Of a stretch of 64,000 bases of DNA, positions 2,521-38,986 are shown piece by piece. The position numbers and the translations under genes are program-made. Source of the DNA: Shigella phage Henu11; the sequence record OM953433; one strand, written 5' to 3'. Position 1 is the stretch's first letter, and the number at the start of each line of letters is the position of its first letter. Under the pieces are notes generated by a model, which saw only the letters and a program-made list of their open reading frames with translations, had not been told where the DNA came from and searched no databases.

Positions 2521-2571
2521 GTAACCTCCTATACAAGATATAGTATAAGGTACTCTTCCATGAGCACCTTG

Positions 2572-3087
2572 TCAACTTAGTTTTGCAAACTCTCCGTGGA
2601 GTTTAATAGCAGCTTCACAGTAAGCTTTATGGGCTTCTTCTTCTGTTGTGTATGTACCTATATGTATAGTCTTGCCATTATGGTTAATCTGGGCTATCCA
2701 CTTACCAGACTTGCTTCTACTTGTACCTTTTAAGTTTTTTGATGTTCTGGGTTGTCTCCTATTAGACATGTTCTGTTCTTTTGTGGCCTCCCTGAGATTG
2801 TCCCAAGCGTTATTCAAACCATCTCCATCTTTGTGGTCAATGTGTTTATCAGGCCACTTGCCTGTCATCCAGAACCAAGCAATTCGGTGATTGCCTGTCC
2901 TGTATCCTAAAATCTGTGTGTGCATATACACACCAGACCTTGTGCGCTTGATTGCTCCGGCTTGGCTCCCAATAACCACCCTACTACTATGTGGAGGCCT
3001 GCCAATCCACGTTAAGACCCCTGTTTCGGGGTCATAGTTTAACCAAGACTTTAACTGTTCATGTGTGAATCCACAATCTCGCATCAA
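2572..3087 (-). CDS. HNH homing endonuclease with AP2-like DNA-binding domain
   Basis: 171 aa; HIDHKDGDGLNNAWDNLREAT HNH core; N-terminal YDPETGVLTW paralogous to ORF 12631-13167; lies immediately 3' of DNA polymerase. Confidence 0.75.
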   Translation of the reverse strand: MMRDCGFTHEQLKSWLNYDPETGVLTWIGRPPHSSRVVIGSQAGAIKRTRSGVYMHTQILGYRTGNHRIAWFWMTGKWPDKHIDHKDGDGLNNAWDNLREATKEQNMSNRRQPRTSKNLKGTSRSKSGKWIAQINHNGKTIHIGTYTTEEEAHKAYCEAAIKLHGEFAKLS

Positions 3088-5783
3088 TGTACCTCATACC
3101 AGCTCTTACCAACTTTACCAGTACCTGTTACCAAGGTTTCTTTCCTTAGTCCAAGGTTTTTAGAAGCTTGTCCGTACATCCAGTCAGTAATAGCCTTAAC
3201 TTCTTGAGTCATACTTTCTGGACATTCCCAACTATTTTCGTCGTGGTATGCCAGAAGAAGTCTAGCTCCAATAGCTGGCTTACGCCCATTTAGTTTCATC
3301 AACCCTTCATCATATGCTCTACGACATGCAAGGTTAATTGCTTCATTCTGGACTTGACTTTCTGAACCCATCAAAAGGTAATTTAACAGCTTGTGTGGAG
3401 ACTTACACCACAGCCAAGCTCCAGCAACCTTCACAAAACCACCTTTAGCTATCGCAGCAGTTTTACCAAACACCTCTTCAAGTGCTTTCTTAGTTGCTTT
3501 GAAATCAGCTTCCAAGTTGTCTAACAGTTTCTTAATCTTCGGCAAGCGCACAAAGTAAGTCTGCTTAGTCAATGCACCTTCCTGAGTAGTTGCTGCTTTA
3601 ATTGTTTTAGCAAACTTCTCATCACCTGCACCGAACAACAGGGCATAGATACCATTCTTAGCTTTCTTACGTCCCTTGCTAATCTCATGAAGAAGATTCT
3701 CATCCTGAGTAGCACGACAAGTCAAGATATCTTGCTCATCATTAAGGCTGAAGTAGATACTGTTCAGAGTGTGAGCATCAGTCCCTGAGTAAACTACGTA
3801 CAAATCGTTTTCAGAGTCATAACGCAGATACTTGTCAATCTCTGGATTCAGATACTGGTCAAAGTGTTTGCAGTAGTATCTTCCATCCTCTTGACGAACA
3901 AACTCAATCTCTTCTTTACCCTCTGTTACCGCTTTGGTGAAGTCTTTATCACCCATGAAGTTACAGAGTAGTACAAGCTGTGCAGAGTTCATATCAACAG
4001 ATACTACGTTGGTTCCCTCTTCACAAATCCACACTGCCCTCATTGGCTCACCGTAAACAGCAGCACCAGAAGGTACGTTTACAATACCATACTGAGTCAT
4101 ACGTCCAGTAGAAGTACCAAACACCATTGCACCTGCACTCAAACGACCATCTGGACGAATCTGGTTCAGCCAACCTTTCTCATCATCCTTTGAGTTCTCA
4201 ATAGTCCTGCGTCGGTGCATCAAAGTATAGTACTTCGCAATCTTCTGTCCAAGCTCACCTTCGATTGTATCATAAGAAGACTCTGTAAGCTTTGGTGAAG
4301 TCCTAATCAAGCAAGGCTCAAGCACATCTGTGTACTTCTTAACAGACCAGTTATGCTCGATGTAATAGACACCTTCATGCTCAATATAGTTCAACCCACA
4401 ACGCTCAACCATCTCATCCCACTTAGGATGTTTGCGAATCATCTTTTTGTTGTCTTTGAATCTGCAAACCTTAACCGGACGACCATCAGAATCTTTTTTG
4501 TAGTTCCAATCATCAGGAATCCAACCAACAGATTTTAAGTAATCCTTCACCACAGCTACCTGAGTCATTCGTGAAACTTCAAACTCAATTGGTGTGAATG
4601 GTGCATCAATCAAACCAGTGTAGCGACTTGACTCCAACTCGAAGTGATTTACAACATGCACATTATAGTACTTCACAATCTTCACAGTCTTAACTGGTTT
4701 CCAATCTTTACACTTCTTCCCAATCTTCTCATTCAGTTCATTACAAACTGCACGAGCATCTTTCATTGCTACGAAACCTTCAGGGTACTCTTCTTTGGTA
4801 ACCGTATTAGTTGGTGTGTAGCAGTTACGTTTCTCAACGTTAAAAATCTTTGTAGTTGGCTTTCCATATGGCTTGATAGGGTATTGCTTCAACTCACCTT
4901 CACGCATCTGTTCACGATACTTTGTCTTAGGGTACTTGGTAATCCTTTTTAAGCCGTCAACGTGACCAAATGTATCCACATACTCATTCCAAGACTTAGC
5001 AAACTCTTCACCTGTGACCTTACCTTTTGTCTTGATAGTTGGTGGCAGGTGTGGCTCAACCTCAGCAGCTAACTCATTAGTTAACTTGTCAAGTTCTTTA
5101 ACATGGAACTGCATAAGTTCTACATCAGCTTTCCAACCGTTGATAGCTTGCTGGCTCATCCAGAAAGATGTTTCTTTAGCTCGCATATAGGTTTCATAAG
5201 TGTCAACACCACACTTCTTAAGCTTAAGGTACTCATTATCAAGAGCACGTTTAGTTTTGGCGTTAATCTTAATATCTTCTACAACACGAGTAAGAATCTC
5301 TGCATTCCATACACCCCACTCTTCAATCTCTGGTTTACGAACACCAACACGAGCACCCCATGCAGCCAAACCATGAGCACCTTTGTAACCTTTTGGTGTA
5401 GGTCTATCCATCCACTGTACGCGAGATTGGATAAGTGAATCCTGAAAGAAGTCACTCCAAGGCTTACACTTAGGATTCTCAAAGTTCCACAGGTCAGGTG
5501 CAATGTGATTAAACACCCACCAGTCATAACCAAGACCATTGTGGATACAAAGACGTTTAGCTTTCAGTGCAAACTCAACACCTTCACGCAGACCACCTTT
5601 GATGTATTTTGTATACTTGTGACCAAGAATAGGCTCATCAGTGAAAACCCACACAGCAGGTTCATCACTGTCATCTTTATAGTCTGCGAAAGCCATTACG
5701 TGTGCTTTTGTAAACTCAAGGAGCAACCCATCAGTTTCTGTATCACCAACCAAATGTAATTTTTCGAAATCTACATTGTCCAT
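3084..5783 (-). CDS. DNA polymerase, family A (T7 gp5-like) with 3'-5' exonuclease domain
   Basis: 899 aa; exo motifs DTETDGL and HNGLGYDW; pol motifs GAHGLAAWGARVG, LFGAGDEKFA, LLAYHDENSWECP resembling T7 DNA polymerase. Confidence 0.9.
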   Translation of the reverse strand: MDNVDFEKLHLVGDTETDGLLLEFTKAHVMAFADYKDDSDEPAVWVFTDEPILGHKYTKYIKGGLREGVEFALKAKRLCIHNGLGYDWWVFNHIAPDLWNFENPKCKPWSDFFQDSLIQSRVQWMDRPTPKGYKGAHGLAAWGARVGVRKPEIEEWGVWNAEILTRVVEDIKINAKTKRALDNEYLKLKKCGVDTYETYMRAKETSFWMSQQAINGWKADVELMQFHVKELDKLTNELAAEVEPHLPPTIKTKGKVTGEEFAKSWNEYVDTFGHVDGLKRITKYPKTKYREQMREGELKQYPIKPYGKPTTKIFNVEKRNCYTPTNTVTKEEYPEGFVAMKDARAVCNELNEKIGKKCKDWKPVKTVKIVKYYNVHVVNHFELESSRYTGLIDAPFTPIEFEVSRMTQVAVVKDYLKSVGWIPDDWNYKKDSDGRPVKVCRFKDNKKMIRKHPKWDEMVERCGLNYIEHEGVYYIEHNWSVKKYTDVLEPCLIRTSPKLTESSYDTIEGELGQKIAKYYTLMHRRRTIENSKDDEKGWLNQIRPDGRLSAGAMVFGTSTGRMTQYGIVNVPSGAAVYGEPMRAVWICEEGTNVVSVDMNSAQLVLLCNFMGDKDFTKAVTEGKEEIEFVRQEDGRYYCKHFDQYLNPEIDKYLRYDSENDLYVVYSGTDAHTLNSIYFSLNDEQDILTCRATQDENLLHEISKGRKKAKNGIYALLFGAGDEKFAKTIKAATTQEGALTKQTYFVRLPKIKKLLDNLEADFKATKKALEEVFGKTAAIAKGGFVKVAGAWLWCKSPHKLLNYLLMGSESQVQNEAINLACRRAYDEGLMKLNGRKPAIGARLLLAYHDENSWECPESMTQEVKAITDWMYGQASKNLGLRKETLVTGTGKVGKSWYEVH

Positions 5784-6042
5784 TTTTACTCCCTCTCAAA
5801 TCATTCTGGATAATACCCTACAGCAATTTTCTGCAAAAAGCAAGTTGACAAACTACTTGACAAGGTGTTAGTCTTTTCGAAGTGGGTTTTATCTTAATAG
5901 ACTCCCTTTATAGATTAACTATACAGTTTCTTTAAAAGTCTTAAAAGATTTTTAATAGCTTTTAAAAAGCTTTAAAGTTATATGTATAACATACATAAAG
6001 ATAAGAGATTAAAATCTTTATAGATACTTAACAGAGGCAATC

Positions 6043-6483
6043 ATGCAGAGGATGTACGTTCACCCAGATATCAATAACCTTGTCCAAGCTTTAGAAAGAG
6101 TTGAAGCACTTTACATCGAGGCTCAGAAGGAGTATGCTTATCAACATCGTCGAATGGTTGATGTTCAGCATGAGATAGAACTATCAAGTGGATACGACGA
6201 AGGTTTAAAGTGTTCTGTATTTGAGCACATGAAAGAGATATCTTCAGAAAGACGTAAAGCGAAAGACACAATCTTTTTGATAGATACCTTAAAAAATAAG
6301 TTGCAAAATGGAACGGACTTAGATAGTCTATCCCAACTGCTTCAGGATGCAGAGAATACGTGGGACAGAAATTACTTCCCACGGTCTGAAAAAGGACTTG
6401 ACTTCTCTTCACAAGAAAGCTTAAGATTATCACGACTTACTATTAACAAAATGAGAGAGATTAAAGATGAAAACTGTAAATGA
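6043..6483 (+). CDS. hypothetical protein
   Basis: 146 aa; first gene of plus-strand block after AT-rich divergent region. Confidence 0.5.
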   Translation: MQRMYVHPDINNLVQALERVEALYIEAQKEYAYQHRRMVDVQHEIELSSGYDEGLKCSVFEHMKEISSERRKAKDTIFLIDTLKNKLQNGTDLDSLSQLLQDAENTWDRNYFPRSEKGLDFSSQESLRLSRLTINKMREIKDENCK

Positions 6484-7261
6484 GATTCTGGAAGAAAAAG
6501 GTATTGACGAAGCATTCATGCTGAACACTGTTGAGACTCTTGCTATCATTATGCGTAGCAACTCACTGTCAGGAAAATTTATCCCTGAATCTCTGCGTGT
6601 TGTAAAAAACGCTGTAGAGAATGACGAAGATTTCCGTAAAGAGGTTGAATACCTGCTGTCTAATAAGACTGATGCTCTGAAAACCATCCTCATTGGTGTT
6701 GATGCTTTTGCAACATATATCTTTGATGAAATGTATTCAGGTGGATACATCCAGATTACTGAGCAGGGTATTAAAGAGCTTGATAACATGAGTGATGAAG
6801 ACATTCTGAAAGCTATTTGTACGCCAGTTGCTGCTGTAATGGCATCACTAGAGAAGCGTATGAATGATAAGTCACCACGTTATGTAAAACTTGATTGGGG
6901 CTTTGATGAAGTATCTGAAAAGGCAATTCAGTATGCTGATGAGACAATGAATAAGCTGTCAGAGATTACTAATGGTCTCGCATTAGACCCTATTCAGGTG
7001 AAGGTAACTTCACTGTTAAACGCTATCTTTAGTATCATGGGTATCCATGCTTTACTTGAAGTTTCAAAAATGTTAGAGTCTGACCCAAGCTTTGTAGAGA
7101 GCATTTCACAAGGTGCTCATACAGCAGCACTCGGAGAAGTATTTAGTCAAACTGGTGCAGCAGTTCTTAGCACCAAGATTGCAATCAACTTCGGTGAAGA
7201 GTTTGTTCAGCAGCTAGAAGCAATGTCTGAGCGTGAACTCACTGGTTATAAACTACAATAA
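6467..7261 (+). CDS. hypothetical protein
   Basis: 264 aa ORF followed by hairpin terminator. Confidence 0.5.
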   Translation: MKTVNEILEEKGIDEAFMLNTVETLAIIMRSNSLSGKFIPESLRVVKNAVENDEDFRKEVEYLLSNKTDALKTILIGVDAFATYIFDEMYSGGYIQITEQGIKELDNMSDEDILKAICTPVAAVMASLEKRMNDKSPRYVKLDWGFDEVSEKAIQYADETMNKLSEITNGLALDPIQVKVTSLLNAIFSIMGIHALLEVSKMLESDPSFVESISQGAHTAALGEVFSQTGAAVLSTKIAINFGEEFVQQLEAMSERELTGYKLQ

Positions 7262-7276
7262 TTGTGGCATACCCTT

Positions 7277-7304
7277 AAGCCTCCTTAATTGGGGGCTTTT
7301 TATT
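7277..7304 (+). terminator. rho-independent terminator
   Basis: hairpin AGCCTCC...GGGGGCT followed by TTTTTATT. Confidence 0.5.
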
Positions 7305-7318
7305 ATGGAGTGACTTAT

Positions 7319-8059
7319 ATGAAAAGTGTTATTGCATTTACTGGAAAAGCTCGTTCTGGAAAGGATACGTCTTGCAGCATTGTAAAAAATCTATTGAATG
7401 AGGTTGGATACACTGTTAAAGTGTTTGCGTTTGCCGATAACTTAAAAGCAACTGCTGGGTTTATCTTTGACTTAAACTGGCACGACCTATATGGTGATAC
7501 GAAAGAAACGCCTAAAAAGTTTAGCTTAGATTTTGACAACCTTAACTCTCGTGTGGCATGGGCTTTCAATATAAACATGAAAAGCAAGGGTATACAAGAT
7601 GATGCAAAACTTTGTGGGGAAATCACAGACAGACTTATCAAAGAGTTAAAGAAAGTTGGTAAGCCAACATTGCTTACAAAGCTTGGTTTGAAAAATGAAT
7701 ATATGATTTCCTCAAGACAAATACAGCAAGTCTGGGGTAGTGAGGTTATCCGTAAAATTCTTGGAGAGCGTTTCTGGATTACAGACTTAGCAGAACGTAT
7801 TGAAAAATTCTATGGTGATTGTGTTAAGAAAAGTCACATAGGTATTGCACTGATATGTGATTTAAGGTTTGATATTGAAGCTGAGTTCCTTCAAAGCTAT
7901 GATAGCCAGATAATTGAGATTACAAGAAAAGATGCTATTCAGGTGGCTTCCCATAGCTCTGAACGTGGTATCTCCACTAACTTCTCCCGTGATATTATCC
8001 AGAATAACGGAACGATGGAAGAGTTAGAGAGTAAACTTAAAACCATTATCAATCTATAA
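7319..8059 (+). CDS. deoxynucleoside monophosphate kinase (T4 gp1-like)
   Basis: P-loop FTGKARSGKDT near N-terminus and C-terminal GTMEELESKLK resembling T4 dNMP kinase; start placed at ATG with GGAG RBS. Confidence 0.75.
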   Translation: MKSVIAFTGKARSGKDTSCSIVKNLLNEVGYTVKVFAFADNLKATAGFIFDLNWHDLYGDTKETPKKFSLDFDNLNSRVAWAFNINMKSKGIQDDAKLCGEITDRLIKELKKVGKPTLLTKLGLKNEYMISSRQIQQVWGSEVIRKILGERFWITDLAERIEKFYGDCVKKSHIGIALICDLRFDIEAEFLQSYDSQIIEITRKDAIQVASHSSERGISTNFSRDIIQNNGTMEELESKLKTIINL

Positions 8060-8062
8060 AAG

Positions 8063-8263
8063 GTGTTGAAGATGAGAGATAATAACTTTAAAGTAATTGA
8101 CCACCGTACAGTGGAACTCTCATCTCTTTCCAAAGAAGTTATGATGGAGCGACTTGAAAGGGTCGCTTCAAGAAGGAAAGAGATTGCAGAAGAAATCCAT
8201 GAGCTTGATAAGATTGAAAACGGTCTTAAGGCAGAACTACAACGAAGAGGTGTGAATGGCTAA
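8063..8263 (+). CDS. hypothetical coiled-coil protein
   Basis: 66 aa ORF. Confidence 0.4.
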   Translation: MLKMRDNNFKVIDHRTVELSSLSKEVMMERLERVASRRKEIAEEIHELDKIENGLKAELQRRGVNG

Positions 8264-10247
8264 ACAGAGAAAACTGAAAGATGCTGGAACATTTGTAGGC
8301 CACTGTGCATGTCCACGCCCTCAATGTTTATCTTCAGATGCAGGTTCTATATATCGTCATGATGACGGTTCATATTCAATGACATGTTTCAGTTGTGGAA
8401 AAGGTTTTCCAGAGTGGGATTTTGATAAAGGGCAGATTGTGAGTACTCATACTTCAGGTTCAGAGAATAAAAACCGTACATTTCGTGGTATGGATTTGGA
8501 TGATGTGAAAGAAAACCTAGAAGCAATGGATTTAAAAGATAGGAAGATTCCTGCAAAAGTCCTTGAGCGTCTCGGTATTAAAGTTGATATTGATGATAAC
8601 GGTGATATTGATGCACATTTCTATCCAACATACAAAAAGGATGAAGATGGTAAGTTGCAACATGTAGGTTATCGTGTTCGTCACAAATATCCAGATGACT
8701 ATCACAAAGAGCACTTACGTGGGAAGTTGAAAGACTTTTCTGGTGGTGTCGGAGATATTAAAGGTGAACTGGCTATGTTCGGTTCATGGATTGCTCCAGA
8801 AGGTGGTAACCGTCTTTTCATCTGGGAAGGTGAGATGGAATGTGCTACAGCAATCTACATGACTTCTTTAGCAATTAAAGATAAGTCTAGACGTAAGAAT
8901 TACTGCCACGTTTCTGTACCATCTGGTGCTAATGTTAAGTCTATCAAAGAGAACTATCAGTATATTACTTCCTTTGATGAGATTTACCTATGCTTTGATA
9001 ATGATGAAGCAGGGGCTAAAGCAACTAAGGAAGCTGCTGGTATCTTACCTATTGAGAAAGTAAGACTATTCCAGTATCCTGAAGGTATTAAAGACCTTAG
9101 TGAGTGGTGGACTAAGTTCTTCAAAGACAAAGATACAGTCTTAGAAGGATTTAAACAACGAATCTACAATGCACCTCGTTACTGCCCTGCTGGTATCAAG
9201 AACTTTGCAGATGGTTTCGATGCTATGAAGAATCGTGGTCAGATTCCTTTAATTCCTTTCCCAGATTCTTTCGGGGATTTGAATAAGCTGACTTATGGCG
9301 GGTATGGTTTAGGTGAGATTACAACCCTTGCTGCACCTTCATCTGTAGGTAAATCTGCATATACTCGTGAGATGATTTACAAAGCATGGAAAGATACTGA
9401 GTACAACATCGGTGTAATTCCTGTAGAAGATACTTACGAAGAACTTATGGAAATGCTCTGTGCAATCCATCTTAGTAAGCAGATTTCAGAGATTCCTTAC
9501 GATGAGCGTAATTGGGATGAGATTAAGGTTGCACATGCTGAGTTGTCAAAAGGTCGTCGTATTCACATCGTAGACCACCAAGGGGCAATTGACCAAGATA
9601 ACCTGCTGGAGTTTGTTGACTATCTGGTTAACAGTCTCGATTGTAAGATTATCATCCTTGACCCTATTACATTGGCACTGTCACGCTCTGATACAGATGA
9701 AGAAGAAGTTCTGTCTGAGTTACTTCGTCGCTGTAAGCGTTATCAGTATGCTCAGGTAAACGTATGTCACGTTCGTAAGAGTGCAGGTGGTCAAAAGGCC
9801 AACTCTGAAGGTGGTGATATTTCTGAAGAAGATATCAAGGGTTCTGGTGCATACTTCCAGATTTCCATGAACAACATTTTGCTTATGCGTAACAAGGTTG
9901 ACCCAGACCCTGTTAAAAAGAACTTGACAAAAATCAAGCTAACAAAATGTCGCCGTCATGGTAAGTCAACTGGTATTGCTGGTCACACTTGGTATAATCC
10001 AGATACAGGTCGTCTTGTAAAGGCTGCTGGATGTGGTGTTGATATTGATGGTGCAGCAGAGAATATTCGTCAGCAGTTTGGTATTGGTGAGGCTGAAGAC
10101 CATTACGATGACTCTATGCCACACTATGAAGATGTTGATTTTGACCGTGAATCTGGAGAGATTTACACACAAGAACAACGTGAAAGTTCCACCATTCCAC
10201 CTGTGATTAACGAGGATAATGATGACTGTCCGTTCGAAACTGATTGA
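8256..10247 (+). CDS. DNA primase/helicase (T7 gp4-like)
   Basis: 663 aa; N-terminal Cys-rich zinc ribbon, central primase-like region, C-terminal helicase P-loop AAPSSVGKSAY. Confidence 0.85.
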   Translation: MAKQRKLKDAGTFVGHCACPRPQCLSSDAGSIYRHDDGSYSMTCFSCGKGFPEWDFDKGQIVSTHTSGSENKNRTFRGMDLDDVKENLEAMDLKDRKIPAKVLERLGIKVDIDDNGDIDAHFYPTYKKDEDGKLQHVGYRVRHKYPDDYHKEHLRGKLKDFSGGVGDIKGELAMFGSWIAPEGGNRLFIWEGEMECATAIYMTSLAIKDKSRRKNYCHVSVPSGANVKSIKENYQYITSFDEIYLCFDNDEAGAKATKEAAGILPIEKVRLFQYPEGIKDLSEWWTKFFKDKDTVLEGFKQRIYNAPRYCPAGIKNFADGFDAMKNRGQIPLIPFPDSFGDLNKLTYGGYGLGEITTLAAPSSVGKSAYTREMIYKAWKDTEYNIGVIPVEDTYEELMEMLCAIHLSKQISEIPYDERNWDEIKVAHAELSKGRRIHIVDHQGAIDQDNLLEFVDYLVNSLDCKIIILDPITLALSRSDTDEEEVLSELLRRCKRYQYAQVNVCHVRKSAGGQKANSEGGDISEEDIKGSGAYFQISMNNILLMRNKVDPDPVKKNLTKIKLTKCRRHGKSTGIAGHTWYNPDTGRLVKAAGCGVDIDGAAENIRQQFGIGEAEDHYDDSMPHYEDVDFDRESGEIYTQEQRESSTIPPVINEDNDDCPFETD

Positions 10248-10500
10248 TAGTTATCTGAAGGAGGGTTTTGAACCCTTCTATTCAGAAAAAAGCAGAGAAA
10301 AATTTGTAAAAGAGTGCTTGACTAAGATAGAGCAGTTCGGTAAAGTACTCATCAACAAGGGACATGAAGTAAAGTTTGAACACTTATCAAAAGATAATGT
10401 TGAGCAATTTGCATTAGCGATTGATGGGTTATCTACAGTTTACACCTTTACCTTGACTAATAAACATTTTGAATATGAAATATATCGGAGAGATTCATGA
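10219..10500 (+). CDS. hypothetical protein
   Basis: 93 aa ORF. Confidence 0.4.
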   Translation: MMTVRSKLIDSYLKEGFEPFYSEKSREKFVKECLTKIEQFGKVLINKGHEVKFEHLSKDNVEQFALAIDGLSTVYTFTLTNKHFEYEIYRRDS

Positions 10501-10634
10501 AACATTCTAAAGCATTCGAGAAAGTATTTGGCGATTCCATGAAAGCAACTGCTGGTAAATCTGCTGAACACTATGTACAGAAGCGAGTTCGTACAGGTAA
10601 GACGGCTCGTAAAGCAGCTAAGAAATCTGCTTAA
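10497..10634 (+). CDS. hypothetical small basic protein (45 aa)
   Basis: short ORF not in track; ATG overlaps upstream stop; lysine/arginine-rich. Confidence 0.25.
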   Translation: MKHSKAFEKVFGDSMKATAGKSAEHYVQKRVRTGKTARKAAKKSA

Positions 10635-10638
10635 AGTG

Positions 10639-10668
10639 TTTGACAAGGGAGTACGAAGTCTGTAAGAT
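10639..10668 (+). promoter_or_regulatory. sigma70-like promoter
   Basis: TTGACA, 18-bp spacer, TAAGAT. Confidence 0.4.
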
Positions 10669-10719
10669 TGTACTCCTTGATAGTTGAGTTGAAAGTTAAT
10701 TTGAGAAAGAGGTATTAAA

Positions 10720-11580
10720 ATGTCTAAAGTTGTTAAAATGAAAGCTCCGGTAGAGAAGTACAATGGTCAAGAACGTGAGACTCTTCGTTACCTGCTGAAA
10801 GATGTTTGGTTCTATTACCTGAACACTATTCCACGTCCTCAAAAGGGTAAATCTGTGGATAAGCATTTTCCGGGCAAAGATTGTAACTACAGCGTTTCAA
10901 TTCTGGCAAAAGATGGTAACAAGCTCTTTAAAGAGTTCACCAAGTCTAAAAAGAGTCCTGAAGGTTGGGATAAAGTTACTACAGAGGCTGTTGATGCAGA
11001 TGACTTCGAAGAGAAGTTTGGTTGTGAGCCTCCGTTTGAAGCTGACACCTATCACATCCTGAAGGTTAGCCGTTCAGCAGCATATAAAGACGGTGCTGTG
11101 TGGTCAGCAAAACAGAGTTTCCCTGTAATGCTGGTTGAAGAAATCAACGGTAAGCGTGTTGCAGTTAAGCAGCCTATGAAGAAAATCAAGGCAGCAAAAT
11201 CTGATAAGCACGATGATGATAAGACTTACGATGTAATTCATCCAGATATTGCAGTTGGTAACGGTTCATTTGGTAGTGTGATTCTGGCGACTCACTTCTA
11301 CACATTTGAAGGTAACGTTCTGACCAAGCCAATTCAGGAACAATTTATCATTGATACTCTGGTTCCTTACACTGGTGGTACTGGTGGTGCTACTGAGACT
11401 GAACTGGATGAAGATGAACTGGCAATGCTTGGTCTTGCAGGTGTTGAAGACAACGGTGAAATCACTGAAGAAGATGCAAAAGATTCTGGTGATGAAGGTA
11501 AAGGTGGTGATGACGATGACGACGACCTGCCAAACCCAGATGATGACGACGAAGATGATTTCGAAACTGACGACGAGTAA
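10720..11580 (+). CDS. putative ssDNA-binding protein with acidic C-terminal tail
   Basis: 286 aa; C-terminus DDDDDDLPNPDDDDEDDFETDDE; sits between helicase and exonuclease as in T7-type replication modules. Confidence 0.45.
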   Translation: MSKVVKMKAPVEKYNGQERETLRYLLKDVWFYYLNTIPRPQKGKSVDKHFPGKDCNYSVSILAKDGNKLFKEFTKSKKSPEGWDKVTTEAVDADDFEEKFGCEPPFEADTYHILKVSRSAAYKDGAVWSAKQSFPVMLVEEINGKRVAVKQPMKKIKAAKSDKHDDDKTYDVIHPDIAVGNGSFGSVILATHFYTFEGNVLTKPIQEQFIIDTLVPYTGGTGGATETELDEDELAMLGLAGVEDNGEITEEDAKDSGDEGKGGDDDDDDLPNPDDDDEDDFETDDE

Positions 11581-11598
11581 TAGTCAGTAACTACTACA

Positions 11599-11627
11599 AA
11601 GCCCTGTACAGACGTATGGGGCTTTTT
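11599..11627 (+). terminator. rho-independent terminator
   Basis: AGCCC...GGGGCT hairpin followed by TTTTT. Confidence 0.5.
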
Positions 11628-11642
11628 CGTATGGAGAGTACA

Positions 11643-12689
11643 ATGGAACAATACACCTTAACAAAGCTCCCAGAGAGCGTTACACACGTCTTTATTGACT
11701 CTGATAGCATTGCTTACAAAGGTGCTTGTGTAGTTGAAAAAGCAAAGTACAAGTATGTGAATAAAATCACTGCTGAAGAATCCGATGCTTTTGATAGTGC
11801 AAAACTGGCAGCACAATGGTTGTCTGACCAAAGAGTTTTAACTGAAGAGTTAGGACTTGACTTTGATGAAGATGAATGGGAAAGACAGACTTGGAAAGAA
11901 GCTAAAAGTGAAGCTGAAGCAATTATGGCTACACAGCAAGTTCTTCAGGAGTGGTTGAAAGTCGTTGGTAAAGAACGCAAATGGATGGGTTACCTTACTG
12001 AGAAAGGTGTTCACAAACACAAGGATATCAAAGGTCTTGAACACCAATACCAAGGTAACAGAAAAGAAGCTGTAACACCTACACACCTAGTTGCTTGTCG
12101 TGAGTATCTTCTGTCACGACCAGAGTTTAAGCTGATTCTTGATGGGTTTGAAGCTGACTCTATCGTTATTGCAAAAGCTGAAAAGATGGGTAAAAAAGCT
12201 GCCCTCATGAGTATTGACAAAGACCTTCGACAAGCTGAAGGTACTTACTGCATTGATATGACTTATGAGAAAGCCCCATTGATTTTTATCGCTGATAATA
12301 ACGTTGGTGAAATTTGGGATTGCCCAATAAAATCTACACCAAAAGCTAAGAAGACAGTTGGAGTAGGATTTAAATTCCTCTGCTACCAAGCCGTAGCTGG
12401 TGATAACGCAGATAACTACTTCGGTTTAAAGGGTGCTGGTAAAGTTGCAGTAATGAAAGCTCTTGAAGGTAAAACTACTTACAAAGAATGTCTTGATGCA
12501 ATTTATGAACTGTATGCTAAGAAAGACTCTTACACTTATGTTTCATGGGATGGTCAGACAATTACCAGAACACCTTTAGAGTTAATGCAGCAACACTTTT
12601 TCTTAGCTTATCAGGAAAGAAATAAGAAAGATGATTTCACTTTTGATAAGTATGGGTGGACACCAAATGTTAACTCGGCAGATTCTTAA
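11643..12689 (+). CDS. 5'-3' exonuclease / flap endonuclease (T7 gp6-like)
   Basis: resembles T7 gp6 (SIDKDLRQAEGTYCIDMT, AVAGDNADNYFGLKGAGK); start moved to ATG with GGAG RBS outside terminator. Confidence 0.8.
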   Translation: MEQYTLTKLPESVTHVFIDSDSIAYKGACVVEKAKYKYVNKITAEESDAFDSAKLAAQWLSDQRVLTEELGLDFDEDEWERQTWKEAKSEAEAIMATQQVLQEWLKVVGKERKWMGYLTEKGVHKHKDIKGLEHQYQGNRKEAVTPTHLVACREYLLSRPEFKLILDGFEADSIVIAKAEKMGKKAALMSIDKDLRQAEGTYCIDMTYEKAPLIFIADNNVGEIWDCPIKSTPKAKKTVGVGFKFLCYQAVAGDNADNYFGLKGAGKVAVMKALEGKTTYKECLDAIYELYAKKDSYTYVSWDGQTITRTPLELMQQHFFLAYQERNKKDDFTFDKYGWTPNVNSADS

Positions 12690-13167
12690 AGAATATCTAC
12701 ACTATGACCCCGAAACAGGGGTCTTTACTTGGTTAGTAGACAGAACTGGTAAGGCTAAAGCTGGCTCTGTAGCTGGAGTTAAACACCATAGTGGCTATGT
12801 TTATATAAAACTCTTTGGTAAAAGATATGCAGCACACAGGTTAGCATTTTTATACATAAAAGGATACCTACCTAAATTAGTTGACCATAAGAACGGTGTT
12901 AGACATGAAAACTGGTTCAACAATTTAAGAGATTGCAGCAGGTCAGATAACAACTGTAACGCCACCAAGAGGAAAGATAATAAGTCTGGTGTGAAGGGTG
13001 TCTATTACCACAAGCAAAGGTGTAGATGGGCTGCACAGGTTAAACATAATAAAGTTTGCTATCATCTAGGGCTGTTTGATTCTGTAGCTGAGGCTGAAGA
13101 TGTTGTTAGAAAGAAAAGAGAAGAACTCCACAGAGAGTTTGCAAATCACGGAGAAACTTATGAATGA
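12631..13167 (+). CDS. HNH homing endonuclease with AP2-like domain
   Basis: VDHKNGVRHENWFNNLR HNH core; N-terminus YDPETGVFTW paralogous to ORF 2572-3087; true start may be internal. Confidence 0.7.
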   Translation: MISLLISMGGHQMLTRQILKEYLHYDPETGVFTWLVDRTGKAKAGSVAGVKHHSGYVYIKLFGKRYAAHRLAFLYIKGYLPKLVDHKNGVRHENWFNNLRDCSRSDNNCNATKRKDNKSGVKGVYYHKQRCRWAAQVKHNKVCYHLGLFDSVAEAEDVVRKKREELHREFANHGETYE

Positions 13168-13664
13168 AGATTAAAGGTTTTGGCAATTGCCCTACTTATG
13201 GTCACTGGATTTCACTATGCGGTGAAGTTGACCCATCAAAGTATTTTGGTTTTGTATACCTAGTCTACTGTAAAAAGACTGGTCAATATTATTTGGGTAA
13301 AAAGCAGTTTAACAGTATCACTAAGAAGAAGGTTGCTGGAAAGACCAGACGTAAAGTAGTGACAAAAGAAAGTGATTGGATGGTCTACCAAACTTCTTCT
13401 GAGTACATCAAGAAAGATATTGAAGCATTTGGTGAAAAAGAATTTGACTTCTACATTATCCAGACTTACTATACGCGAGGTGGCTTAGTTTACGGCGAAG
13501 CTAACCTACAACATAAGTTTGACGTCATGACAAAAAGGATTGACTCTAAGCTTCGACTCTTCTACAATGCAAACATTGCAGCAATCAAGTTTCTTACAAA
13601 AGAGACTTATGATGAAGCTGAGAAGAGAATCACTAAAATCATGAAACTTAATGAGAGAGTTTAA
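13164..13664 (+). CDS. putative GIY-YIG-type homing endonuclease
   Basis: N-terminal FGFVYLVYCKKTGQYYLGKK resembles GIY...YIG motif; tandem with HNH gene. Confidence 0.45.
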   Translation: MKIKGFGNCPTYGHWISLCGEVDPSKYFGFVYLVYCKKTGQYYLGKKQFNSITKKKVAGKTRRKVVTKESDWMVYQTSSEYIKKDIEAFGEKEFDFYIIQTYYTRGGLVYGEANLQHKFDVMTKRIDSKLRLFYNANIAAIKFLTKETYDEAEKRITKIMKLNERV

Positions 13665-24332: not shown

Positions 24333-24603
24333 AGAACAATGGGATATTATACCACTAGTGAGTGATGGTGGAAATGGTTGTGAGATGTATATGATACGTG
24401 GTCACGTTCCAGATGCACTTGCTATTGAGATGGTAAACCACTATACTGACGGCTCTTACAAAGATTTTGGTGAGCCAAATGTAAAACGCCAATGGGTTAA
24501 ACCTGTACCAGATAGCACAGGAAATTGCAGTGTTCTATACCACACTGTTGACCCAACAAAATGTAAAACAGCTATGGCAGTAACAAACGTAACTTTTGAC
24601 TGA
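24325..24603 (+). CDS. hypothetical protein
   Basis: ORF 24298 trimmed to ATG overlapping upstream stop. Confidence 0.35.
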   Translation: MAREQWDIIPLVSDGGNGCEMYMIRGHVPDALAIEMVNHYTDGSYKDFGEPNVKRQWVKPVPDSTGNCSVLYHTVDPTKCKTAMAVTNVTFD

Positions 24604-24617
24604 GAGAAATATTATGA
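24579..24617 (+). repeat. duplicated leader, copy 1
   Basis: about 39 bp AGTAACAAACGTAACTTTTGACTGAGAGAAATATTATGA identical to 25545-25583. Confidence 0.8.
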
Positions 24618-25063
24618 TTTTTTGTAATTTACAAAAACATGTAATAGAAATTTTGTATAAAGAGTTTGGAACAGAGGAAACATTTGATTCTAATGAGGCT
24701 ATTGACGTACTTCGAAAGAAAAGCCTCTACATTAGAAGCCAGTCAATTAATAATGCTCGTGGTTACTTGACAGCATTACGACAAACTGGTGTTCTAATGA
24801 CTGTAGGTCAGATAAAAAGTAAAGGTAGGCTAAGCATTAACCAGCTAAATAAATCCTTCATGGAAAAGCATATCCAGCTATCACCATTACTGGATGAATC
24901 ACATGAAGAACCTAAAAATAAAGATGAGAACAAAATTGTTGACACAGAACCTGACGTAAGGTACTTTATTGAAAGTGCGATGTTTAATACCTTAGAAGAG
25001 GCTGTTGAGCACTGCAAAAAACACATCATTAAGATTAAACGTGCAAAGATTATTTGGGAATAA
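24614..25063 (+). CDS. hypothetical protein, paralog A
   Basis: 150 aa from ATG in duplicated leader; paralogous to 25093-25542 (shared EFGT..FDSNEA, ARGYLTALR, HIIKIKR.KIIWE). Confidence 0.5.
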   Translation: MIFCNLQKHVIEILYKEFGTEETFDSNEAIDVLRKKSLYIRSQSINNARGYLTALRQTGVLMTVGQIKSKGRLSINQLNKSFMEKHIQLSPLLDESHEEPKNKDENKIVDTEPDVRYFIESAMFNTLEEAVEHCKKHIIKIKRAKIIWE

Positions 25064-25092
25064 TTTTATACACTATCTAAAGAGACAAAGTT

Positions 25093-25542
25093 ATGATTAG
25101 CTCATTTTATGTAACGCTTGTTGAGATACTACACGAAAAATTCGGGACTGATAAGGAATTTGATTCCAATGAAGCGGTGAAAGCTCTAAGAAGCGGTTGT
25201 GATTATCTTAAGAAAATGCCGATAGCAAACTCAAGGTATTATTTATCAGCGTTGCGTAAAGTTGGGGTACTCGTGACTGTCAAGCATGGTAGTAAAAATG
25301 GTGGAGTTCTTTATATCAACCAGTTAAGCAAACCATTTATGGAAAATGAGCCACGACTAGCAAGACTGGTGACTGGTGTACAATACCAAATAAAAACTAC
25401 AGAAATTCCAGAAGTACAAGAGCAAAACCCAAATGTTAAGTACTTTGTTGGTGAAATCATGTTTGATACAATTAATGATGCTGTTGCATACTGTAAAAGC
25501 CATATCATTAAAATCAAAAGAAAGAAGATTATTTGGGAATAA
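25093..25542 (+). CDS. hypothetical protein, paralog B
   Basis: 149 aa; tandem paralog of 24614-25063. Confidence 0.5.
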   Translation: MISSFYVTLVEILHEKFGTDKEFDSNEAVKALRSGCDYLKKMPIANSRYYLSALRKVGVLVTVKHGSKNGGVLYINQLSKPFMENEPRLARLVTGVQYQIKTTEIPEVQEQNPNVKYFVGEIMFDTINDAVAYCKSHIIKIKRKKIIWE

Positions 25543-25544
25543 TA

Positions 25545-25583
25545 AGTAACAAACGTAACTTTTGACTGAGAGAAATATTATGA
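25545..25583 (+). repeat. duplicated leader, copy 2
   Basis: identical to 24579-24617; supplies RBS and ATG of Prs-like gene. Confidence 0.8.
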
Positions 25584-37652: not shown

Positions 37653-38033
37653 ATGAAATATCGTGCGCCTAAATTTATCAACAAAGAAAACTTTCGTAGT
37701 ATCTTAGAGGAAACTATGAAAGAAAACTTCAAAGGAAAAATAATTGTTGTTCACGCTTACAATTTTAAGTATGATGTTAATGGTAACCGTATCAACCACT
37801 ACAAAGCTACTATGCTTGACGGTACATTATCCGGTGAAAAAGCTATCATAAATGCTATTGCAGGACGTGGTAAAACTGTGATACGATGCGAAAAAAGACG
37901 CTATCAAGGCGGAAAATATGGATATGAAGATGCAATGTATCATCTTGATAAAATGGGGTATGATGTAGAGAAAGCTGGAGTATCCCAAACTATTGGTAGT
38001 GACGGCTACGTTACAGTTTTCAAAATTAATTAA
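37653..38033 (+). CDS. small array protein
   Basis: 126 aa; conserved leader. Confidence 0.5.
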   Translation: MKYRAPKFINKENFRSILEETMKENFKGKIIVVHAYNFKYDVNGNRINHYKATMLDGTLSGEKAIINAIAGRGKTVIRCEKRRYQGGKYGYEDAMYHLDKMGYDVEKAGVSQTIGSDGYVTVFKIN

Positions 38034-38123
38034 ATAAAGTCCTTTACATGGGGTTTATAGTTAGATAAGATAAGCCCCAGATAAAGAGCTTTACCAACAA
38101 TCAACCTAAACTGGAGTATCAAA

Positions 38124-38381
38124 ATGGCTACTATCAAAAACATCATTGTATCTGCAAAATCTCGTGATGACGCTCGCGCAACTGCTAAAAAACTAAATGG
38201 TAAAGTGGTTGACAACGGAAAAGAATCTGCTGTAAGATGGGGCGTGAAATGTGATAAGGAAATTACTTTAAAACGTAGTTCCTATGACCTTTTCAAAGGT
38301 GTAAAAGCAATCGGTAGAACTAACGTCTACACGAAGAAAGGTTATAAAATGCACTTATCATTAACTGACAATTTAATCTGA
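38124..38381 (+). CDS. small array protein
   Basis: 85 aa; conserved leader. Confidence 0.5.
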   Translation: MATIKNIIVSAKSRDDARATAKKLNGKVVDNGKESAVRWGVKCDKEITLKRSSYDLFKGVKAIGRTNVYTKKGYKMHLSLTDNLI

Positions 38382-38473
38382 TAAAGTGCTTTACATGGGG
38401 TTTATAAGTTGCTAGTATAAGCCCCAGATAAAGAGCTTTACTAACCAATAGTCCTAAACTGGAGAATCTTAAT

Positions 38474-38986
38474 ATGTCATACGTTGAAGCTACCTTTGAA
38501 GTTCAAAAAGAAAAATTCACTATCATCTATGAAGCTGTTAATATTTGTGAAGCATCCCATTGTGTGGAAAATTGGAAGTTTACCGATGAGCACAAAGGCG
38601 GGGTTACAATCAAACTTAAAAATCCAGAGCGTAACGGGTACAAATATGCAATTCCACAGCATTACAGCCTTTCTCAATTGATGAGTGATTATGCTAAACA
38701 AGGCCGCGAAAATCCATCTATAGAGGCTTACAAGAGCTTACAAGATGAATTACAAAGAGATTTAGAGGCTAACAGCTATGTACTATTTGCAAAGGTAGAA
38801 GATAAAGAAGGTAATACGGTATTAAATAGCTTTTCACTTGCTTATGGTTTCGATTGGTGTTATCTTGACGGGGAAGATTTAGATTCACGATTAGAAGAGG
38901 AAGTGTCGAACTCCGATGGAGAATCTGAAGTAATGGAACGTTTGGAAGACTTGAAAGATTCTGTTATGAATATCTTTAATATCTAA
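38474..38986 (+). CDS. small array protein (acidic C-terminus)
   Basis: 170 aa; conserved leader. Confidence 0.5.
   Translation: MSYVEATFEVQKEKFTIIYEAVNICEASHCVENWKFTDEHKGGVTIKLKNPERNGYKYAIPQHYSLSQLMSDYAKQGRENPSIEAYKSLQDELQRDLEANSYVLFAKVEDKEGNTVLNSFSLAYGFDWCYLDGEDLDSRLEEEVSNSDGESEVMERLEDLKDSVMNIFNI

Follow-up and report, generated by a model that had tools for sequence, protein, structure and literature searches.

Homing endonuclease genes (HEGs) are found at the ends of essential operons, where they adjoin polymerase and ribonucleotide reductase (RNR) genes and often lie beside the DNA polymerase gene (Barth, Dunham & Seed, 2023; PMC10448857). The replication module of Shigella phage Henu11 (sequence record OM953433), of which a stretch of 64,000 nt, here called the window, was analysed, carries nuclease genes at both of its ends, and the question is which of these genes are mobile and which belong to the phage itself. 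An original prediction, made from the DNA letters, had read two AP2/HNH genes and one GIY-YIG-like gene as three freestanding HEGs that bracket the replication genes. The window comes from a Mooglevirus-type (Ounavirinae, Felix O1-like) myophage, and the answer obtained here differs between its genes. The two HNH-AP2 genes, termed HNH-A and HNH-B, appear to be freestanding HEGs of the 'HNN-AP2' type, and the GIY-YIG gene (GIY) appears to be a fixed core nuclease outside the mobile layer, a division that the comparative evidence makes likely. Neither this type of finding nor the present case of it is new. Orthologs of the same genes at the same positions are annotated as HNH or GIY-YIG homing endonucleases in Henu12 (gp45/gp36/gp35; the centre of its HNH-B differs, with about 50% identity), Sf14 (gp82/gp83), Michonne (gp37/gp26) and KPS64 (gp36/gp25); six HNH copies are described in Felix O1 (PMC3185647), and HEG 'infestation' with gene conversion is described in larger coliphages (bioRxiv 10.1101/2021.03.08.434280). 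What the present analysis adds is the reclassification of the GIY-YIG gene, the description of allele cassettes and co-conversion tracts at both HNH sites, and a rare-codon palindrome within the HNH genes.

HNH-AP2 genes at the two ends of the replication module

The three nuclease open reading frames (ORFs) lie where they had been predicted and carry the domains ascribed to them, HNH_3 plus AP2 twice and a SegE-type GIY-YIG domain once, with concordant Pfam and PHROG assignments. HNH-A (2572..3084, minus strand) directly follows the stop codon of the family-A DNA polymerase gene (pol; 3084..5783, minus strand; 899 aa). Its ORF listing begins at TTG 3087, and the likely start is ATG 3084, which overlaps the pol stop (TGATG) and gives a protein of 170 aa. 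HNH-B (12631..13167, plus strand) is located between the 5'-3' exonuclease gene (exo; 11616..12689, plus strand; phrog_107, identified by ORF and PHROG match) and GIY, the ATG of which overlaps the HNH-B stop. The likely HNH-B start is ATG 12667 (166 aa), as annotated in Sf14 and in agreement with the N-termini of other alleles. Given these gene boundaries, all three nuclease genes are translationally linked to their upstream neighbours. At the domain level, HNH-A matches HNH_3 (E = 1.3e-14) and AP2 (E = 1.9e-9; 38.1 bits against a cut-off of 33.3 bits), and its AP2 region resembles plant AP2/ERF structures with E-values down to 2.9e-8. HNH-B matches HNH_3 with E = 1.7e-8, and its AP2 match (E = 1.7e-6; 28.7 bits) falls below the same cut-off; this region aligns with the AP2 domain of HNH-A and has weak matches to AP2 structures in the PDB at the right place. 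The appended AP2 DNA-binding domain is thus present in HNH-A and probable in HNH-B. The proposed paralogy of the two proteins also held, with 34% identity (E = 2e-27), and they are the sole such pair within the 64 kb: a search across the window for more paralogs of the three nuclease proteins found none. NCBIfam gave no match for any of the four nucleases of the window (the fourth is described below), and in PADLOC the HNH proteins matched an unspecific 'homing endonuclease' model only and the GIY protein matched nothing.

Both HNH proteins belong to a family with known homing enzymes among its members. They keep residues that align with D74/H75, N87 and N96 of I-HmuI, an enzyme of phage SPO1, and a profile built from the site-B alleles alone matches the I-HmuI structure (1u3e) with E = 1.4e-5. 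By tblastn the family was found at 5349 places in 3161 records, unrelated phages among them, and the matches include hegE/F-TflV and F-TflVIII of T5, named 'nicking homing endonucleases', at 34–49% identity. I-HmuI, the T5 F-Tfl enzymes and the HNN-AP2 enzymes share with HNH-A and HNH-B the HNH_3 core (D-H..N..N, without zinc cysteines), and the C-terminal AP2 DNA-binding domain is common to the HNN-AP2 enzymes and the window proteins. Freestanding HNN-AP2 endonucleases are present in multiple copies and with a patchy distribution in phages Xp10/OP1/Xop411, T1, T5 and RB16/RB43 (PMC2248197). I-HmuI is intron-encoded and the window HNH genes are not, and whereas the HNN-AP2 genes of the Xoo phages are scattered, those of the window are fixed at two exact intergenic positions, one at either end of the replication module.

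The distribution of both genes was examined in eight annotated relatives (Henu12, KPS64, Sf13, Michonne, mistaenkt, Sf14, Moogle and SFPB) and, with DNA queries spanning the junctions, in 50,697 phage records sampled at even steps. The first 16 kb of the window match Ounavirinae myophages, the best being Shigella phage Henu12 (97% overall), followed by Mooglevirus Sf14–Sf19, KPS64, SFPB, Michonne and Moogle (89–96%) and by Suspvirus and Felixounavirus phages at about 80–85%. Among the eight relatives all combinations occur: Henu12 has a gene at both sites, KPS64, Sf13, Michonne and mistaenkt at site A (the pol 3' end) and not at site B (the exo 3' end), Sf14 and Moogle at site B and not at site A, and SFPB at neither. 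HNH-A is therefore missing from three of these genomes and HNH-B from five (KPS64, SFPB, Michonne, Sf13 and mistaenkt), and presence and absence vary among genomes that are 90–100% identical in the flanks. Over the sampled records, site A is occupied in roughly half of 297, as judged from coverage classes and depositor annotation, and site B in about 35% of 268; among the latter, the allele aligns over its whole length in 63 and diverges in the centre in about 27, and the site is empty in about 165.

Both insertions are nucleotide-precise. In empty site A the pol stop region 'cactaatagt' abuts the conserved element 'gTTGACAAGGTGCTCATGGAAGAGTACCTTATACTAT' directly (junction cactaatagt/gTTGACAagg, the slash marking the join). 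The downstream junction consists of a 36-nt conserved intergenic element, TTGACAAGGTGCTCATGGAAGAGTACCTTATACTAT (2540..2575, minus strand), which occurs once in the window and is kept in 9/9 genomes regardless of site-A occupancy; the TTGACA of this element contains the HNH-A stop codon (TGA) in genomes that carry the gene. The TTGACA...TATACT arrangement downstream of HNH-A was also considered as a sigma-70 promoter and rejected, given its 22-nt spacing and the lack of a promoter-scanner call. Occupied and empty genomes also end pol with different codons (SWYEVH* versus SWLEVH*). At site B the segment inserted relative to empty-site genomes spans 12653–13149. In the empty state, '...aattgggagccag/ttatgaATGAagattaaagg', the exo 3' end overlaps the GIY start, and the clean junction reads 'gggagccag/ttatgaATGAag'. 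Carriers of HNH-B have the last ~13–15 codons of exo replaced, ending in FDKYGWTPNVNSADS instead of FKKYNWEPVMNED.

Each site also holds several alleles. At least three types occur at site A, one in the window, Henu12, Michonne and mistaenkt, one in KPS64 and one in Sf13, with 43–48% amino acid identity between them and a common C-terminus (...EEAHxAYCEAAIKLHG(D/E)FAKLS*). At least three types (window/ESh22, Henu12/Moogle and Sf14; about 55% amino acid identity) are likewise found at site B, where the first ~85 nt are common to the alleles, and the window/ESh22 and Henu12/Moogle types share the last ~60 nt as well (...RKKREELHREFANHGETYE*). The allele centres are nearly unalignable as DNA: the variable central cassette of HNH-B (12735..13065, plus strand) is ~50% identical to the Henu12/Moogle allele and 54–57% to the Sf14 allele. 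HNH-A is 100% identical to its counterpart in Henu12. The HNH-B allele of the window is not shared with this nearest genome; it is more than 95% identical only in ESh22 (96% at the amino acid level) and 80–90% identical in 38 further records, including Felix O1-type phages (about 86% at the DNA level). The site-B HNH gene of Moogle is annotated as 339 nt (12748–13086) though the underlying DNA is close to identical with that of the 537-nt allele in Henu12, which reflects either a 5' disruption, i.e., a degenerating HEG, or a mis-called start.

The original prediction had also anticipated mosaic boundaries at this locus, and these are present. A nine-genome alignment, in which identity was scored per 100-nt windows, shows Henu11 to be ~100% identical to Henu12 except for three patches, of which two abut or include the HNH genes. 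One of them covers the pol 3' end beside HNH-A (3100–3380; 74–88% to Henu12, and 100% to Sf13 at 3180–3379), and the other covers the centre of HNH-B and the first ~100 nt of GIY (12735–13280; about 50% in the centre). Identity to empty-site genomes is graded away from both insertions. At site A it rises from 72% (3080) through 74%, 78% and 91–94% to 98% (3480), the zone 3087..3380 (minus strand) representing a mosaic or co-conversion tract at the pol 3' end. To the left of site B it falls from 99% (11980) through 89% and 79% to 58% (12580), and to the right it recovers from 80% (13180) through 87% and 89% to 98% (13480); the 5' ~250 nt of GIY lie inside the HNH-B tract. Islands of high identity connect the HNH genes with more distant phages, each HNH gene standing out with 95–98% in genomes that elsewhere are about 83–86% identical. 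HNH-A is 95–98% identical to Felixounavirus Si3, with a sharp drop at the pol stop to a pol average of about 83%, and the exo 3' half together with HNH-B (11950–13150) is 94–98% identical to ESh22 against a background of 80–90%, the whole co-conversion or lateral-transfer tract extending over 11950..13350 (plus strand). The synonymous divergence (dS) of HNH-A, 1.1–1.2, exceeds the 0.39–0.78 of the adjacent pol with the same partners, which indicates different histories of the two genes. Within an allele, the ratio of nonsynonymous to synonymous divergence (dN/dS) of HNH-A is ~0.05, and the protein is thus under selection. Together, the mosaic boundaries, the identity islands and the spread of the alleles support intronless homing with co-conversion of the flanks.

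From these observations we infer the cleavage activity, the target sites and the homing mechanism of the two enzymes. When a relative without the gene infects the same cell, the enzyme would bind through its AP2 domain and nick or cut the empty allele, the predicted target lying near the 3' end of pol for site A and of exo for site B. Recombinational repair from the HEG-carrying genome would then copy the gene, together with flanking sequence of a few hundred bases, into the recipient, and the altered junction codons of occupied alleles (the last codons of pol; the last ~13–15 of exo) would spare the carrier from cleaving itself. Each site would in this way become a hot spot, at which alleles may swap by recombination in their conserved, site-specific ends, the 5' one of which terminates at the GC-rich palindrome described below.

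The strong purifying selection within alleles, the translational coupling to pol and exo, by which the genes would be expressed together with replication genes, and the use of AP2 as a DNA-binding domain by transcription factors as well could be explained if the HNH-AP2 genes were accessory regulators or nucleases kept for the benefit of the phage, their patchiness arising by repeated deletion and ordinary homologous recombination. Such an origin hardly accounts for multiple unrelated-looking alleles at the same nucleotide-precise sites, for an allele phylogeny that conflicts with that of the genomes, for identity islands centred on the HNH genes or for graded flank divergence, which co-conversion predicts; moreover, the family holds characterised homing or nicking enzymes (I-HmuI, 1u3e; T5 F-Tfl, as named in GenBank). 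We consider an accessory role very unlikely. A different proposal accepts mobility and enlarges it: the two bracketing HNH genes would mobilise the whole ~10-kb replication module, from pol to exo, as 'HEG-island' cargo. The placement agrees with this, as the pol and primase-to-exo operons diverge and each has one of the two paralogous HNH genes at its outer (3') end, HNH-A beside pol and HNH-B, with GIY, beside exo. So does the turnover of HEGs at fixed positions, for which it has been described that cognate positions hold homologs with or without nucleotide similarity and that nuclease genes bound the regions of genetic exchange (PMC10448857). The identity islands, however, measure about 0.5 kb at HNH-A and about 1.2–1.4 kb at HNH-B, too short to span the module; Sf13 is 72–93% identical across pol and 95–100% across primase-to-exo, with an internal breakpoint at about 6400; and many relatives have one HEG or none. 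No module-wide excess of identity between divergent phages was found in the handful of genomes compared. The HEG turnover of Barth et al. recurs here at cognate positions, movement of the bracketed module as a unit is not supported by the genomes examined, and mobilisation of the module is improbable. The homing of the two HNH-AP2 genes remains the preferred reading, and for these sporadic genes at precise sites beside pol and exo the original prediction stands.

Since mobile HNH genes make the ends of the replication module locally mosaic, these regions are best avoided in phylogenies and taxonomy of the Ounavirinae, and the mosaicism is worth bearing in mind when therapeutic Felix O1-like phages are engineered. 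The same variation provides a natural panel for the study of intronless homing and HEG turnover, as closely related, culturable coliphages and Shigella phages offer the A+B+, A+B-, A-B+ and A-B- states with several alleles per site.

A GIY-YIG nuclease gene fixed across the subfamily

GIY (13164..13664, plus strand; 166 aa; phrog_447) encodes a protein composed of the nuclease domain only, which matches PF19835 'SegE_GIY-YIG' with E = 1.1e-26. Its GIY/YIG/E/R/N residues are invariant in the alignment and its catalytic motifs intact. A structure model confirms the GIY-YIG fold, consisting of a nuclease domain of about 140 aa and one short C-terminal helix, and has the I-TevI catalytic domain as best fold match; a sequence search against solved structures gave nothing meaningful. 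GIY thus shares family, catalytic residues and fold with the T4 Seg-type enzymes (SegE, PF19835) and I-TevI. In its distribution it behaves otherwise, as Seg-type homing genes are sporadic and GIY is universal and syntenic. It occurs once per genome (767 places in 765 records by tblastn), with ~296 Ounavirinae-type records at 60% identity or more, and a search of these ~296 records for an empty GIY site found none. For comparison, exo is found at 60% identity or more in 257 records and the pol 3' end in 297, and the counts of GIY and of the pol 3' end run in parallel across organisms (Escherichia 123/120, Salmonella 80/80, Erwinia 29/29 and Shigella 22/22). In all site-B matches, exo or HNH-B is immediately followed by the GIY 5' end. 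Synteny extends to Erwinia phage Tian (Kolesnikvirus), which keeps the order primase/helicase, phrog_3877, exo, GIY, small ORF, MazG-like, RNR, and in Erwinia phages GIY is 62% identical versus about 54% for exo. The dN/dS of GIY (0.05–0.08) is similar to that of pol (0.04–0.06) and exo (0.04–0.05), and GIY is 98.8% identical to its Henu12 counterpart.

The protein differs from Seg-type homing enzymes in its build as well. A profile search of 1.84 billion representatives yielded 2340 GIY relatives, and in the best 150 of these the lengths are bimodal, 64 having at most 200 aa and 86 more than 200 aa. The long relatives (220–390 aa) bear NUMOD3, helix-turn-helix (HTH) or I-HmuI-NUMOD-like modules, as found in nine of ten tested. 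No DNA-binding module was detected in the GIY protein or its close homologs (128–180 aa), which contain PF19835 only; GIY is therefore a nuclease-only form, without the part on which the site specificity of Seg-type enzymes depends. Its size and its single domain presumably make it similar to GIY-YIG nucleases that do not home, e.g., T4 endonuclease II.

The reading of GIY as a third HEG has to be weighed against these data. All three genes might be active freestanding homing endonucleases, with GIY an old HEG that was swept to fixation in the Ounavirinae and still homes or excludes elsewhere: the Pfam family is named after T4 SegE, many depositors annotate the gene as 'GIY-YIG homing endonuclease', the catalytic motifs are intact with I-TevI as nearest fold, and the gene adjoins a HEG hot spot. 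On the other side stand the lack of an empty site among about 296 records, the single copy and the synteny across genera, a dN/dS equal to that of replication genes, a conservation in Erwinia phages that is better than that of exo, and the missing NUMOD3 or HTH DNA-binding module of the long family members; taken together they render activity of all three genes as HEGs unlikely. GIY is a universally conserved core gene and the two HNH genes are not. Because it is universal in the Ounavirinae, its reading as a HEG, which was part of the original prediction, is refuted as far as the sequence data tell. GIY is better read as a fixed core nuclease, single-copy, syntenic and under purifying selection across the subfamily. 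The gene is probably domesticated, and its product most likely serves the phage itself, e.g., in DNA processing or degradation that would not involve sequence-specific homing. That it descends from a HEG nuclease and has taken on an as yet undescribed core role in myophage DNA metabolism is a possibility we put forward only tentatively.

The annotation of the gene is heterogeneous, records labelling it 'GIY-YIG homing endonuclease', 'NAD synthetase', 'HNH homing endonuclease' or 'hypothetical'. The 'NAD synthetase' label appears in PHROG 447, in RefSeq Ounavirinae and in many cyanomyophage records; distant single-copy homologs are present in about 390 of the latter, among them the S-SSM5 homolog (3890–4375; 'T4-like GC 213'), which lies about 2 kb downstream of nrdAB and bears this label. 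Neither Pfam, fold nor alignment supports it, and it looks like a propagated mis-annotation. In hundreds of records the gene is thus presented as a homing endonuclease or as an NAD synthetase, and it is neither demonstrably mobile nor an NAD enzyme.

A rare-codon palindrome in the HNH genes

Near their 5' end the HNH-AP2 alleles contain an 18-nt palindrome, GACCCC-N6-GGGGTC (GACCCCGAAACAGGGGTC), which encodes D-P-E-T-G-V both in HNH-A (3016..3033, minus strand) and in HNH-B (12706..12723, plus strand). The window contains it nowhere else; by chance, 0.03 matches would be expected. The 6-bp stem is kept in 7/7 aligned Ounavirinae HNH alleles, with three different loops. A scan of 2.9 million viral contigs returned 51 exact matches, 29 of them in contigs related to the window, where all lie in HNH-family ORFs (26 identified by regex and 3 by the same N-terminus) with five loop variants. 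Since the others are 8 matches in HNH genes of unrelated contigs and 14 unrelated non-coding hairpins, the motif is not exclusive to the Ounavirinae.

Two simple explanations for the palindrome were tried and rejected. It is not a general consequence of the YDPxTGV peptide, as among 80 diverse family members the distant homologs with the same peptide mostly form 1–4 of the 6 pairs, 2 of these being dictated by the amino acid sequence. Nor does it follow from foreign codon usage. The stem is formed by the rarest codons of the phage, CCC serving 0/137 prolines, GGG 8% of glycines and GTC 7% of valines in ten core genes, and the HNH alleles outside the motif seldom use them either (CCC 11%, GGG 13% and GTC 7%), which makes the codon set about a 1 in 2000 event. 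The predicted hairpins have energies of -12.6 and -13.9 kcal/mol with local z-scores of -2.2 and -3.2, and modest z-scores of -0.8 and -1.7 in contexts of about 100 nt; in HNH-B the hairpin and its T-rich tail were flagged as terminator-like. The allele swap between the window and Henu12 at site B starts at 12735, right after the palindrome. It is conceivable, albeit doubtful, that selection maintains the palindrome as a cis-acting element in DNA or RNA and that it does not simply follow from the D-P-x-T-G-V peptide. It might be an anchor for recombination by which allele cassettes are swapped between the conserved ends, an operator for the GC-preferring AP2 domain, an attenuating hairpin or a gene-conversion patch. 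The operator would imply autoregulation, which is known for I-TevI.

A fourth HNH gene and other variable regions

The count of three nuclease genes fell short, as a fourth one was missed. It is located at 56868..57353 (plus strand), encodes a zinc-finger-type HNH endonuclease of 161 aa from a different family (phrog_2255, 2.8e-34; no Pfam match at E <= 0.01) and forms part of an insert at 56695–57397, between tRNA-Met (56774–56850) and tRNA-Ile (57347–57422), two tRNAs that 2 nt separate in Sf14. This gene, too, is probably a freestanding HEG, here within the tRNA cluster. The window thus holds three variable HNH genes and one fixed GIY-YIG gene. The insert is one of several extra segments relative to Sf14, a phage that has no other annotated endonuclease in its genome, and in two further window-specific inserts, 24618–25545 and 38485–38983, no nuclease domain was found. 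Tandem paralogous ORFs at 24596–25063 and 25093–25542 (plus strand; 155 and 149 aa; both phrog_29478) represent a 928-bp insertion versus Sf14 just upstream of the ribose-phosphate pyrophosphokinase gene, and the ORF that follows the pair starts with the peptide MTERNIM, as does the first copy. The small-ORF cluster at 37653–38986 (37653–38033, 38124–38381 and 38474–38986, phrog_4190), for which blastn found no counterpart in Sf14, represents variable accessory sequence and contains no nuclease domains.

Within the replication module, the plus-strand operon from 6043 contains, as identified by ORFs and domain matches, genes for a dNMP kinase, a primase/helicase, a phrog_3877 protein and the 5'-3' exonuclease, and beyond the exo and nuclease genes follow a MazG-like gene and then RNR genes. 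The third patch that distinguishes the window from Henu12 lies in this operon region (6580–7980; 1.4 kb), where two genes are replaced by another allele: it spans most of ORF 6467–7261 and most of the dNMP kinase gene (7289–8059), with 64–91% identity (mostly 64–82%) to Henu12 and about 90–100% to KPS64, SFPB, Sf14 and Sf13. This patch is an allelic exchange of a module, and no endonuclease gene lies close to it. Finally, Salmonella phage Si3 (Felixounavirus) has an 801-bp insertion inside pol, at the equivalent of window position ~3640, and its pol is annotated as two coding sequences. PC79-13 and Felix O1 (AF320576) likewise list 'DNA polymerase (x2)', and the pol of the window is uninterrupted; an intron could account for the Si3 insertion, as could another HEG site in pol.

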